15,679 nt of DNA from a virus (IMGVR_UViG_2563366799_000007); one strand, 5' to 3'. Positions 2,619-15,679 are shown, counted from the stretch's first letter. Made by a program: numbers and translations. Notes: generated by a model not told the origin, from the sequence alone.

Positions 2619-3209
2619 ATGTCTCGAATTTTTGCTTACTGTCGGATATCAACGCTGGATCAGACCACCGAAAATCAACGCCGGGAAATCGAAAGTGCAG
2701 GTTTTAAAATCAAACCTCAGCAAATAATCGAAGAACACATTAGCAGCTCAGCAGCAACCAGTGAGCGTCCTGGTTTTAACCGGTTGCTTGCTCGCCTGAA
2801 ATGTGGTGATCAATTGATTGTGACAAAACTGGATCGCCTTGGTTGTAATGCAATGGATATCAGGAAAACAGTGGAACAACTGACCGAAACAGGTATCAGA
2901 GTGCATTGCTTAGCATTGGGGGGCATTGACCTGACCAGTCCAACAGGAAAAATGATGATGCACGTAATTTCAGCAGTCGCTGAATTTGAACGAGACCTTT
3001 TACTTGAACGCACTCATTCCGGGATAGTAAGAGCCCGCGGCGCAGGGAAACGTTTTGGTCGACCACCTGTGTTAAATGAAGAACAGAAACAGGTGGTATT
3101 CGAACGAATTAAGTCAGGTGTAAGTATAAGTGCCATTGCCCGGGAATTCAAAACCTCGCGGCAAACCATTTTAAGAGCCAAAGCAAAACTTCAGACACCT
3201 GACATATAA
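2619..3209 (+). CDS. pinQ: Serine recombinase / DNA invertase of the Gin/Hin/Pin family (196 aa)
   Basis: N-terminal catalytic motif YCRISTLDQ with the active-site serine, resolvase catalytic domain and C-terminal HTH ([20 protein letters not shown]). Confidence 0.93.
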
Positions 3210-6180: not shown

Positions 6181-6414
6181 ATGTCAACGAAGAACAGAAC
6201 CCGCAGAACAACAACCCGCAACATCCGCTTTCCTAACCAAATGATTGAACAAATTAACATCGCTCTTGAGCAAAAAGGGTCCGGGAATTTCTCAGCCTGG
6301 GTCATTGAAGCCTGCCGCCGGAGACTGTGCTCAGAAAAAAGAGTTTCTTCTGAAGCAAACAAAGAAAAGAGTGACATTACTGAATTGCTCAGAAAACAGG
6401 TCAGACCAGATTGA
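6181..6414 (+). CDS. ynfO: Small basic protein, 77 aa, with a predicted ribbon-helix-helix DNA-binding fold
   Basis: Track ORF; RNIRFPNQMIEQINIALEQKG...NFSAWVIEACRRRL fits a beta-strand/helix/helix pattern. Fold assignment is inference. Confidence 0.6.
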   Translation: MSTKNRTRRTTTRNIRFPNQMIEQINIALEQKGSGNFSAWVIEACRRRLCSEKRVSSEANKEKSDITELLRKQVRPD

Positions 6415-6471
6415 AGCAATTTAGATAATCGTGCAGACTACGCCCCCTCATATCACATGGAAGGTTTATCT

Positions 6472-7378: not shown

Positions 7379-7609
7379 TCAACTCAAGAGCCTTATTGCT
7401 GCTTCCAGAATTTCTTCTGAAGTAACATGTCGATCCGCGGCTACATAAATGACTTTATGATCTCCGGTCAGAGATGGAAACCCTGCGGCCATTACAGTAA
7501 GGTGTGTTTTTTCGCCATTTGGATATTCACGCATGATGGTGTTAACTCCAGTCATCGCTGGCACTACCACTGCTGGTTCAGAGTTAAAAAAAACTATGAT
7601 TTTTTTCAT
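7379..7609 (-). CDS. ynfN: Prophage small protein YnfN-like (76 aa from MKKIIVFF...; track ORF runs to 7651)
   Basis: Track ORF; start choice is uncertain because a hairpin at 7660-7673 lies inside the longer version. Confidence 0.6.
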   Translation of the reverse strand: MKKIIVFFNSEPAVVVPAMTGVNTIMREYPNGEKTHLTVMAAGFPSLTGDHKVIYVAADRHVTSEEILEAAIRLLS

Positions 7610-7652
7610 GATGTTACCGTAGTATGTGAGTATCCATCGAATAGACACCAAG

Positions 7653-7673
7653 CCAAAAAGCTCCCGAAGGAGC
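7653..7673 (-). terminator. GC hairpin GCUCC-UUCG-GGAGC followed by UUUUUGG on the minus strand
   Basis: Read from the sequence; lies between cspI and ynfN. Confidence 0.5.
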
Positions 7674-7880
7674 CTTCATTTTCACTTTTTTAAATCCAAC
7701 GACAGACGGCTGGCATTTAAGTATTGTGAAATATTATCAAATGTAATCATCATTGATTTACAAAAGATACATTTTGCCCCGAAAGGATTCATGTCAGAAA
7801 CATCAAAAGATGATGTTCTATACTGGGAACCATGACAACACGGGCATCTAAAGTGAATATGGTTTGTAATATTGTCTACC

Positions 7881-8093
7881 TCAAAGCGCCACTACATGAA
7901 CAGCGGCAGGACCTTTAGGTCCGTTCTCAATACCAAATTCAACTTCCTGATTCTCAGTTAATGTTTTGAAATCGTTGCTCTGAATTGCTGAGAAATGGAC
8001 AAACACATCTTTGCTGCCATCTTTCGGCGTGATGAAACCAAAACCTTTTTCAGGGTTAAACCATTTTACTAAACCAGTCATTTTGTTAGACAT
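7881..8093 (-). CDS. cspI: CspA-family cold shock protein (70 aa)
   Basis: Cold-shock domain with RNP1 motif KGFGFI and RNP2 VFVHF. Confidence 0.95.
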
Positions 8094-8455
8094 AATTATT
8101 ACCTTTTGAAGAAATTAGCCCTTGGGCAGAATGGTCCGAAAAAAAATATCAGAGAGAAAAACCAACAAGGAAATCTCAAGAGGTACAAATAATAAAATTA
8201 TAACAATGACTGCTTCAGATAAATTTGTAACAAACCAGAACACCATTAACGCATGATTAACCACCCATAGCAAGGATTACTTTTGTAAAGAAAAACACAG
8301 CAATGAAAGAATAGCTTTATTTATTAATAAAACGTGTCATTCTGATTAAGACCTTTTATCTTACCCTTAAGATTTCAGGAATTTTGGCTCATGGAAGAGT
8401 CCTTTTTATTTAAATTTTACATTCCGCGATGTAAATGTTCCGATTTAATATTACC

Positions 8456-9483
<1,028 letters not shown>

Positions 9484-13730: not shown

Positions 13731-14120
13731 TTACCTCCAGAGGCGTTGCTGGAATGTACGGGACGGACGCGGTGGGCGTTCGGAGTAAGGCAATCTGACT
13801 GAGATTATCCAGTGACGGTAGTCGAGGCTAAGGGCTTTTTTAACCTCGTATCCGCGCCTGCGGTAACACTGAATTATCCATTCAGCCTGCTCTTCAGTGC
13901 ATGGTGGATGCTGGAACCAGTCCGATTTGAATGCATGAAAACGCCGTCCGCACCTGCTGGCAAAGACGGCAGAATCATCAGAATTGTGTAATTTGGTATC
14001 GTGCGCCATCGGTTGTCTCTGCTGGCGCAGCAGGTGCCAGTTGTTCAGGCTGGCGTATAAAGTATAAATAAACTGGTTCCAGTGTAAAGCCCCTACATTA
14101 ATGGAATAAAAGTCAAACAA
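13731..14120 (-). CDS. rem: Prophage protein Rem-like; start uncertain (TTG at 14120 or ATG at 14009)
   Basis: Track ORF; stop abuts the ydfU start, suggesting translational coupling. Confidence 0.6.
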   Translation of the reverse strand: MFDFYSINVGALHWNQFIYTLYASLNNWHLLRQQRQPMAHDTKLHNSDDSAVFASRCGRRFHAFKSDWFQHPPCTEEQAEWIIQCYRRRGYEVKKALSLDYRHWIISVRLPYSERPPRPSRTFQQRLWR

Positions 14121-14370
14121 CAGATTGTTGGGATAAACACAACGCTTATTATTAAAAGCGATTAGATAAATTAAATTTTAATGTTATGCAATTTTACCAG
14201 ATCACCATAACATCTCGTTTGAAACCACCAAAACAACAACCATATCAATATTGATTATGTTAAAGTGAGTAAATATGGAAAACAACAAATCTGCACATTA
14301 CGCTCCTTTTTTATCTGTGATACTTTTTGTTTTATGCTGTGTGTGGGCATTATTTTTATAAAAATATTTA

Positions 14371-14467: not shown

Positions 14468-14623
14468 TTACTCCTCAGGTTCGTAAGCTGTGAAGACAGC
14501 GACCTCCGTCTGGCCGGTTCGGATTCGTACCTCGCAGAGGTCTTTCCTCGTTACCAGTGCCGTCACTATGACGGTTAAACAGATGACGATCAGGGCGATT
14601 AACATCGCCTTTTGCTGCTTCAT
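14468..14623 (-). CDS. hokD: Hok-family type I toxin (51 aa), closest by recall to HokD/RelF and Gef
   Basis: MKQQKAMLIALIVICLTVIVTALVTRKDLCEVRIRTGQTEVAVFTAYEPEE. The track ORF extends 19 codons upstream in frame to an ATG at 14680 (a Mok-like position). Confidence 0.9.
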   Translation of the reverse strand: MKQQKAMLIALIVICLTVIVTALVTRKDLCEVRIRTGQTEVAVFTAYEPEE

Positions 14624-14827
14624 AGCCTGCTTCTCCTTGCCTTTCGGCACGTAAGAGGCTAACCTACATGTGTCTAGCATGAAATTGGCCTCAGATTAAT
14701 GTTAAGCGTCTTGCAGGACGCGTAATGTTAACTGGGGCTTTTCTCTATCTGCCTTTGGTGTTCATGCCTGAGGCAGATAGCCTCAAGCACCCGCAGCAAT
14801 TCTACTTAACTCACGTCACCTCGCCAA
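14624..14827 (-). promoter_or_regulatory. hok leader and promoter: candidate -35 TTGGCG (14822-14827) and -10 TAGAAT (14799-14804), predicted start near 14793
   Basis: Promoter hexamers with 17-bp spacing read from the sequence; the predicted 5' end coincides with the segment complementary to the 3' fold-back element, giving a transcript of about 420 nt. Confidence 0.5.
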
Positions 14828-14834
14828 TATAAAA

Positions 14835-14924
14835 TCAATCAGAAAGGCGATCCGTAAGAACAACAGCAAGACAATAAATTGCCATTACAGCCGCAATAGC
14901 TAGCGCACATTTGAGAACCAGCAC
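14835..14924 (-). CDS. Candidate 29-aa membrane peptide (MLVLKCALAIAAVMAIYCLAVVLTDRLSD); possible type-I-toxin-like small protein
   Basis: GTG start with a perfect AGGAGG 5 nt upstream (14930-14935); candidate promoter TTGAAT-17 nt-CATATT at 14962-14990; ends 8 nt before the hok -35. Overlaps, in another frame, the Cys-rich 98-aa track ORF. Confidence 0.3.
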   Translation of the reverse strand: MLVLKCALAIAAVMAIYCLAVVLTDRLSD

Positions 14925-15238
14925 GACAACCTCCTGTATTGGACGTACACCAGTCCTGATAAATATGAGGCTGTCTCATCATTGATTCAATATAACTATT
15001 GGGTATAGTTTCTGTGATTTTGTTCTGTAGAAATGGAACACAACAACCAGTCTCCACCAGCACTTCTTTAAATACGCCAAGTCCGACGCAAGCTAACCTT
15101 CTAGTCCGCTTTGAGCGAACTGTGGAAGCTCGCAAATGTTGTTACATCTGATGAAGGCATTACTCAAAGGAGGGGATAGTAGTCAACGTGGAGCAGGCCA
15201 TGTTAGTATTTTTATACAATTCGACTAAGGGAAAAACA

Positions 15239-15679
15239 ATGAGGCTTTACATAATAGGAAATGGATTTGACATGCGTCATGGCTTACCAACAGGATACAA
15301 GCACTTTAAGTCGTATGTAGAAAAAAATGACCAAGATCTATATGACGCGATAGAAGAATACATTCCTGCTGGGGACGAGTGGAATGAGTTAGAAAATGCT
15401 TTAGGTGAAATTGATTATGAGCTTATCCTTCAAAACAGTGAGATATTTTTGGCTTCATACAATACCGATGATTGGAGCGATGCTTATCATCACGATTACC
15501 AATATGAAGTAAATAAAATCACACAAATGCTGTCAGCTCGTTTGAAGGAGCAATTCGCTGATTGGGTTAAGGAAGGTGCGAATAAGCGGGGAAATTCTTC
15601 TCGGCTGACTCAGTCATTTCATTTCTTCATGTTTGAGCCGATTTTTTCTCCCGTAAATGCCTTGAATCAGCCTATTTAG
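15239..15679 (+). CDS. AbiH-like abortive-infection protein, N-terminal domain only (147 aa from the ATG at 15239; track ORF starts at GTG 15188)
   Basis: Starts MRLYIIGNGFDMRHGLPTGYKHF, which I recognise as the N-terminal signature of the AbiH family; AAGGGA 7 nt upstream. Stops at the window edge at less than half the usual family length. Confidence 0.55.
   Translation: MRLYIIGNGFDMRHGLPTGYKHFKSYVEKNDQDLYDAIEEYIPAGDEWNELENALGEIDYELILQNSEIFLASYNTDDWSDAYHHDYQYEVNKITQMLSARLKEQFADWVKEGANKRGNSSRLTQSFHFFMFEPIFSPVNALNQPI

Follow-up and report, generated by a model that had tools for sequence, protein, structure and literature searches.

An AbiH gene interrupted by IS5 in a variable cargo slot beside a conserved small open reading frame and hok in Qin-like prophage DNA

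The DNA analysed here is a viral contig of 15,679 nt (IMGVR_UViG_2563366799_000007; this whole stretch is called the window below), and the present work concerns its right end, positions 14835-15679, where a 29-codon open reading frame (ORF) on the - strand stands head-to-head with an AbiH-like ORF on the + strand, next to a hok toxin locus. Three independent things were found to meet there: a unit composed of the small ORF and hok, a slot occupied by different cargo genes in different genomes, and an insertion of IS5. Our reading, to which we assign a probability of roughly 0.8, is that an AbiH gene broken by IS5 lies in a swappable slot beside a fixed unit of the peptide gene and hok. The remaining DNA of the window resembles a Qin-like prophage (ydfJ, pinQ, antiterminator, ydfU/DUF968) and is matched in many E. 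coli genomes; therefore, the early rightward direction of the phage corresponds to the - strand and the locus falls in the accessory region ahead of Q. The gene order on that strand is replication genes, cargo slot, 29-codon ORF, hok/sok, a gene of 92 amino acids (aa), DUF968 and Q. We concluded that the window ends in the accessory (nin-like) region of a Qin-like cryptic lambdoid prophage, in agreement with a first-pass annotation of the same sequence, which had placed the locus ahead of Q in a lambdoid phage. The two divergent ORFs reported by that annotation were both recovered from the ORF list and the sequence, spaced by 314 nt, and the hok/sok locus it named as their neighbour directly adjoins them.

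The + strand ORF opens with MRLYIIGNGFDMRHGLPTGY at the ATG at 15239, its product begins MRLYIIGNGFD...HGLPTGY, and its TAG stop is the last codon of the window. The profile search proposed in the first-pass annotation supported the AbiH-like assignment made there. The 146-aa product matched the Pfam AbiH family (PF14253) with 99.1 bits (E=6e-28; cutoff 30.9 bits) over profile positions 1-132 of 260, and the AbiH model of PADLOC was also matched (E=1.2e-8). An intact homologue (P0024) spans profile positions 1-258. An alternative start, the ATG at 15200, is used by the Prokaryotic Genome Annotation Pipeline (PGAP); we preferred the ATG at 15239 because both profiles, that of PHROG and that of Pfam, start at the residue corresponding to it.

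Comparison by megablast with 5426 complete E. coli genomes showed that 91 of them match positions 14700-15570, with up to 100% identity, and that none matches beyond 15570. The gene in these 91 genomes encodes a 302-aa 'bacteriophage abortive infection AbiH family protein' (WP_001297700.1; 289 or 302 aa depending on the start), and positions 15239-15570 of the window are 100% identical to the intact 302-aa genes of other E. coli. Positions 15571-15679 are the terminal 109 nt of IS5: they are identical to the IS5 end beside an annotated IS5 transposase in a K-12-type genome (L002), and show 100% identity to IS5 ends in more than 1700 genomes. The junction at 15570/15571 reads TTAA followed by GGAAGGTGCGAATAAG (TTAA/GGAAGG). 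The terminal inverted repeat GGAAGGTGCGAATAAG, the adjacent IS5 sequence and a target, TTAA, of the YTAR type preferred by IS5 are thus all present. In translation, identity to intact AbiH extends to ...FADWVK (residue 110) and is followed by a tail, EGANKRGNSS...NQPI and the stop, that comes from IS5. The apparent 147-aa ORF is consequently not a natural frame, as only residues 1-110 belong to AbiH and the last 36 codons with the TAG stop are read-through into IS5. The earlier suspicion that this ORF is incomplete was right, but the cause is a transposon insertion and not a frameshift.

Four motifs, GNGFD, FNYT, IHG and G[HY]SL, are invariant in a six-sequence AbiH alignment that includes distant relatives, and only GNGFD precedes the break. 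The residues left in the window, including GNGFD, fit the first half of the profile of the AbiH family as known from Lactococcus lactis and catalogued in PF14253, PADLOC and DefenseFinder, whereas IS5 cuts the domain short ahead of FNYT, IHG and G[HY]SL. Because the IS5 after codon 110 removes three of the four invariant motifs, we regard this AbiH copy (N-terminal 110 codons, 15239-15570, + strand) as dead and concluded that it is an IS5-inactivated pseudogene. The remaining part of AbiH was absent from the rest of the window, and the IS5/AbiH junction was found in neither IMG/VR nor any of the 5426 complete E. coli genomes. Past the end of the window, the full IS5 of about 1.2 kb, a repeated TTAA and then AbiH from codon 111 onward (AGGGATTAACATAGCC...) would be expected. 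The intact protein, for which no relative by sequence was found in PDB, is classified by its profile match as a member of the abortive-infection family; according to a 2026 review, AbiH resembles sirtuins and may deplete NAD+, a proposal whose mechanism is untested (PMC13064643).

In intact E. coli loci, AbiH is followed by a gene encoding a 463-aa protein (7499-8890 in the related locus L001), for which there was no match in Pfam, PADLOC, NCBIfam or PDB and no meaningful match in PHROGs. This gene stays with AbiH at about 90% identity in other contexts on IMG/VR contigs, and two loci (L356 and L357) hold the pair with neither hok nor the small ORF nearby. In two further loci (L355 and L358), AbiH occurs without the 463-aa gene, away from hok and the peptide; the ORF upstream of AbiH there is one that we take, by its N-terminus, to be UmuC-like. 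Homology of the window to the AbiH contexts that have no hok begins at 15103/15104, and therefore the 135 nt upstream of AbiH form part of the AbiH cassette. AbiH as catalogued is a single-gene system, whereas the E. coli version precedes a conserved 463-aa gene of no known family; the two genes may represent a two-gene variant of AbiH. Strain 503025 (NZ_CP025892.1, 1641.7-1644.2 kb) provides one example of the cassette with both genes intact. The 90%-identity cluster of the 463-aa protein includes Klebsiella and Salmonella proteins. Other genomes show damage independent of that in the window: AbiH is interrupted by IS1 or truncated at residue 75 or residue 189, and the partner gene has received an insertion. 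Insertion sequences are recurrent at this place, with IS1 in AbiH in five genomes, an IS5-type end at the hairpin on the hok side in L173, and IS1 probably in the 463-aa gene in L345.

The small ORF is tied to hok and not to AbiH. About 60 loci were recovered from viral contigs, and wherever one of them contains both genes, the two share a strand and the peptide start precedes the hok start by 300-301 nt. A blastn search with positions 14828-15210 detected this block in 1971 of the 5426 complete E. coli genomes (about 36%), mostly just from 14828 to about 15120, and AbiH lies beside it in only about 91 of the 1971. Strains with the locus include UTI89, E. coli W and S. flexneri M90T. Within that block PGAP annotates nothing. 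In the annotated examples the left neighbour is always hok and the right neighbour differs: AbiH with the 463-aa gene, two hypothetical proteins (UTI89), a hypothetical protein with an S-adenosylmethionine (SAM) methyltransferase and SMEK, or a HAD hydrolase with a NUDIX hydrolase. The motif at 15104-15118 (15 nt) is common to both sides, and homology to hok-side blocks with other cargos reaches about 15118. We concluded that the peptide ORF and AbiH are two separately inherited modules whose boundary falls in this motif, and that they are adjacent here because a variable slot borders a fixed unit of small ORF and hok.

Right of about 15118, at least 34 different inserts, 1.0-6.7 kb in size, were observed in the loci fetched. 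The border on the hok side carries a hairpin at 15104-15127, made up of the outer arm GTCCGCTTT, the loop GAGCGA and a degenerate inner arm, ACTGTGGAA. The far-side hairpin has the form (inner arm)-TGGCAC-AAAGCGGAC; in L001, where the two hairpins occupy 6405-6428 and 9056-9084, it is found about 70 nt beyond the DUF977 gene. The same 9-bp stem (GTCCGCTTT/AAAGCGGAC), with different loops, was found at both borders of the slot in 75 related loci with about 34 cargos; each of these loci shows GTCCGCTTTGAGCGA where the slot meets hok and TGGCACAAAGCGGAC at its opposite end. The outer arms of the hairpins do not change, and the arms that face the cargo differ from one cargo to another. In the window the hok-side hairpin alone is visible; the far-side hairpin of this genome would be expected past the 463-aa gene, ending ...TGGCACAAAGCGGACAACCACG. 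The motif GTCCGCTTTGAGCGA also borders the AbiH cassette in a context without hok, and several copies of it lie between genes in L358. When cargo proteins were scanned against PADLOC, PDC-S39, PDC-S06 (PrrC-like), Tmn and NsnA/PD-T4-2 were matched, and five of the nine scanned had no match. Covariation between the two cargo-side arms, a sign of insertion into a hairpin loop, gave mixed results. Taken together, the shared short hairpin sequences suggest that cassettes are exchanged by recombination at them.

Mobile cassettes of T4-type phages reportedly carry stem-loops at their flanks. The paper on those cassettes (PMC2839356) is the closest description known to us of hairpin-bordered cassettes; the slot described here differs in having one shared 9-bp stem at both borders, and any function of its hairpins is putative. 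The slot also resembles the variable defence hotspots of P2 and P4 prophages (PMC9122126), in which many different defence or accessory cassettes alternate at a single fixed site, but here the prophage is a Qin/Rac-like lambdoid one and the slot lies between the DUF977 gene and hok.

The 29-codon ORF (MLVLKCALAIAAVMAIYCLAVVLTDRLSD) occupies 14835-14924 on the - strand, with a GTG start at 14924-14922 and a Shine-Dalgarno sequence, AGGAGG, that can be read directly at 14930-14935, 5 nt from the GTG. The 29-aa product has an 18-residue hydrophobic core at residues 6-23, predicted as one hydrophobic helix, and a polar/charged tail. These are the sequence properties of a small hydrophobic membrane peptide of the type I toxin kind, and the product is most likely a single-pass inner-membrane peptide. 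Homologues were collected with a 15-mer upstream of the start as the probe, which leaves the sequence of the ORF itself unconstrained. This probe yielded about 60 true homologous loci in viral contigs; in genome contigs it gave only chance matches in unrelated taxa. Among viral contigs and genomes together, all 43 distinct sequences have the 29-codon frame with the same start and stop positions. In the conservation check proposed in the first-pass annotation, the small ORF thus behaves as a conserved coding frame. AGGAGG is retained in most of 33 distinct upstream variants, with AGGAGA in two diverged lineages (4 variants). The 43 sequences encode 12 peptide variants, which differ by conservative replacements (A/T/V, V/I, M/T/V/I, D/E, L/F). 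A further 95 copies, of which 93 have 29 codons, came from a pattern search of metagenomes and brought the number of peptide variants to 17; since the pattern included AGGAG, these copies were preselected for it.

The 29-codon ORF is probably a real, uncharacterised gene. An alternative is that it is a chance open frame, untranslated, in conserved regulatory DNA upstream of the hok promoter. The ORF is very short, belongs to no family and is passed over by PGAP; the flanking non-coding DNA is also well conserved, and most copies are more than 90% identical, so that an intact frame alone is weak evidence. Against this, changes in the frame have a synonymous to non-synonymous ratio of 17:17, with the highest synonymous fraction of the six frames (10:24 and 5:29 in the other sense frames). 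In nine of ten pairs the ratio of non-synonymous to synonymous substitution rates (dN/dS) is 0.12-0.54, typically about 0.2-0.3, and it is 0.20 at a dS of 0.71 against the most distant copy, that of the Shigella virulence plasmid pINV. Variable sites at codon positions 1, 2 and 3 in the 43 sequences number 10, 6 and 16. The ORF is free of indels in about 160 copies, whereas the adjacent block has several. In addition, the GTG is replaced by ATG, at the same position, in the pINV copy and in a second sequence. Database forms of 34 and 37 aa start at a non-standard codon that overlaps the Shine-Dalgarno sequence, and we favoured the 29-aa form because the ATG variants occur at its start. On this evidence we consider it doubtful that the frame is untranslated.

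Several observations weigh against our reading. The excess of variable third positions is modest in an ORF of just 29 codons, and one pair, the window and phage HannyBb, has a dN/dS of about 1. The peptide family is limited to Escherichia and Shigella, so that divergence is small, and the annotation of PGAP and RefSeq leaves the ORF out. The case for translation and expression of the peptide is drawn from the nucleotide sequence only. In five upstream variants (13 copies), CTCATC stands in place of the hexamer TTGAAT of the putative promoter described below. Finally, the window stops short of the far-side hairpin and of the remaining AbiH sequence, neither of which can be seen for this genome.

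Profile searches with the peptide found no family in Pfam (E<=1), NCBIfam, PHROGs or PADLOC, and a phmmer search of 1.84 billion representative proteins returned its close relatives only, which databases label merely 'membrane protein' or 'uncharacterised protein'. Of 50,697 phage records, 4 contain the peptide, which was also present on pINV-type plasmids (124 Shigella plasmid records). The distant copy on pINV of Shigella and enteroinvasive E. coli (L006, about 2950-3100) lies about 290 bp upstream of icsP, with its ATG behind an unchanged AGGAGG; of hok, the promoter and the beginning of the leader are left there, and the coding sequence is missing. In two viral contigs (L201 and L226), the 29-codon ORF is intact and the DNA past its stop is unrelated to the hok promoter; therefore the peptide gene is separable from hok. 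Literature searches on the peptide sequence, on small ORFs upstream of hok, on this slot and on the region upstream of icsP on pINV retrieved nothing relevant.

Between the small ORF and the cargo slot lies a conserved block (14925-15103) with 87-100% identity across E. coli genomes, which we regard as non-coding because it has indels of 1, 9 and 14 nt among homologues. It contains a putative sigma-70 promoter of the small ORF on the - strand (14962-14990), with TTGAAT at 14990-14985, a 17-nt spacer and CATATT at 14967-14962. This site is under the threshold of a consensus scan. Among the 33 distinct upstream variants, both hexamers and the 17-nt spacing are retained in three diverged lineages (L006, L007 and L258), whose spacer sequences differ. 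As persistence of the hexamers with a differing spacer is the pattern expected of a promoter, the site is probably the small ORF's own. On the other side, the hok promoter (TTGGCG-17-TAGAAT, 14799-14827, - strand) found in the promoter scan begins 8 nt past the stop codon of the small ORF. The sequence scan detected no terminator between the 29-codon ORF and the hok promoter, and read-through into hok is thus likely. The promoter scan also gave a promoter-like site on the + strand (TTGATT-16-TATAGT, 14982-15009), which could give rise to a divergent RNA.

That RNA, together with the resemblance of the peptide to small toxins, raises the possibility that the 29-codon ORF encodes a type I toxin controlled by a dedicated antisense RNA, so that two toxin-antitoxin modules, this one and hok/sok, would lie in tandem. 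In favour of this, the peptide is short, hydrophobic and charged in its tail, and it lies beside a known type I toxin; the promoter-like site on the opposite strand is in the conserved upstream block; and a 9-bp stem (GACAGCCTC/GAGGTTGTC) could mask the Shine-Dalgarno sequence in transcripts begun upstream. In size, in having one hydrophobic helix and a polar tail, and in prophage location, the peptide is also like TisB, ZorO, ShoB, DinQ, Ibs, Ldr and Fst and like small prophage membrane proteins in general. The family searches reported above, however, gave no match to Hok/Gef or any other family, and the similarity of the peptide to Hok, TisB, ZorO, ShoB, DinQ, Ldr, Ibs and Fst was not above that of shuffled controls; its local alignment score with HokD was reached by 8.7% of shuffles, which does not place it in Hok/Gef. 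Between the candidate divergent RNA and the peptide mRNA, no complementarity beyond chance was found, as 70% of shuffles reach the observed duplex energy. No compensatory changes were seen in the stem that might mask the Shine-Dalgarno sequence, and pINV lacks this stem. Scans for an antisense RNA found no terminator and only weak promoter-like sites, Rfam detected no family at the locus besides sok, and the dS of 0.71 speaks against strong constraint by an overlapping RNA. Because complementarity does not exceed chance and the stem lacks both compensatory changes and a counterpart on pINV, we hold it to be a minority possibility that the peptide is a type I toxin with a cognate antitoxin RNA; small type I toxins differ from the 29-aa peptide in that there is no detectable sequence relationship, and no antisense partner of the peptide was found.

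Very improbable, and largely refuted by gene distribution, is the functional pairing suggested by the first-pass annotation, in which the peptide and the AbiH-like protein would be one two-component toxin/defence unit with a shared divergent control region: the two ORFs are head-to-head, 314 nt apart, about 91 E. coli genomes show their arrangement again with 100% identity, and hok is clustered there with several defence genes, but the DNA between the two ORFs is made up of two modules, about 95% of the genomes bearing the peptide hold other cargo, AbiH moves with its own partner and upstream region in contexts that lack the peptide and hok, and AbiH is destroyed here and in several other genomes with the peptide still intact.

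On our reading of a broken AbiH in an exchangeable slot beside a fixed unit, the locus may work as follows. The 29-codon ORF would be translated from its strong Shine-Dalgarno sequence, on a transcript that would come from its own promoter, plus any read-through from upstream, and would continue into the hok locus. As a working guess, the peptide would act alongside Hok or modulate it, and would not be a classical type I toxin. The slot holds different defence or accessory cassettes by strain, here AbiH with its 463-aa partner, transcribed away from the phage early operon, and IS5 has inserted at the TTAA after AbiH codon 110. A bolder version of this is that the peptide is an unrecognised functional partner of this hok lineage, acting on the membrane as another toxin or, as a small transmembrane protein, modulating how much Hok is made or how active it is. 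It would share a transcript with hok in about one third of E. coli genomes, be kept on the Shigella virulence plasmid, and be sited at the edge of a hairpin-bracketed slot where lambdoid prophages exchange defence cassettes through recombination at the hairpins; we think this whole proposal unlikely as it stands.

The AbiH part of the locus is routine, being an annotated defence family with an insertion-sequence knockout in a decaying prophage. The interest that remains is moderate and lies in an apparently selected, unannotated peptide gene tied to hok and in the hairpin-bracketed defence slot. The peptide gene, which about 36% of complete E. coli genomes carry and which also occurs on Shigella pINV, is omitted by RefSeq, and we found no publication on it; because its place ahead of hok is fixed, a link to the regulation or activity of Hok would be easy to test. 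The slot between the replication genes and hok is a useful place to seek new defence genes, since several of its cargos match known or candidate defence families and others are unclassified, and the hairpins with the same stem suggest how cassettes may be exchanged.

The hok/sok locus itself extends over 14468-14792 on the - strand, with the hok mRNA leader at 14618-14792, an in-frame mok extension from the ATG at 14680 and the hok coding sequence at 14468-14623. Pfam HOK_GEF matched the mok/hok frame with 81.6 bits (E=3e-23), and Rfam sok (RF01794) matched 14618-14792 on the - strand with 119.9 bits (gathering score 59), placing the 5' end of the hok mRNA at about 14792. A Hok/Gef protein and a leader/sok RNA region are thus both present, as in a hok/sok type I toxin-antitoxin locus, and PGAP labels the gene hokD in homologous loci. 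A terminator of the locus was found by sequence scan at 14399-14382 (- strand). To our knowledge, an upstream 29-codon ORF is no part of the hok/sok locus as commonly described. Since the peptide occurs in so few phage records and on pINV-type plasmids, and hok is far more widespread than the 29-aa peptide, the distribution suggests that the ORF is specific to this hok lineage. Prophage hok/sok loci such as hokD of Qin and hokW-sokW of Sakai prophage 5 (PMC8621323) share with the present one Hok, an in-frame mok, the leader/sok region and a terminator; the conserved 29-codon ORF at a fixed upstream position sets this lineage apart, and the hokW-sokW paper mentions no upstream small ORF.

A third ORF over the same DNA, of 98 aa (14839-15135, - strand), begins with TTG and has no Shine-Dalgarno sequence. 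Its start belongs to the AbiH cassette and its end to the hok module, so that it crosses the junction between them; it matched no family. It is not conserved: the equivalent frame holds ORFs of 11-102 aa in the 43 homologues and of 47-104 aa in databases, and the indels of 1, 9 and 14 nt mentioned above fall in the block under it. We concluded that it is not a gene, as the first-pass annotation had judged from its start, its missing ribosome-binding site and its composition.

Further along the - strand, the 92-aa gene between DUF968 and hok (13731-14009) matched phrog_1212, whose function is not assigned, with E=1.4e-35; the mechanical ORF call at this place, 129 aa with a TTG start, exceeds the annotated gene. 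A second small hydrophobic ORF (MENNKSAHYAPFLSVILFVLCCVWALFL), with 28 codons and an ATG start, lies at 14275-14361 on the + strand. It is convergent with hok, just past the hok terminator, and is intact in 45 fetched loci, with 7 peptide variants.

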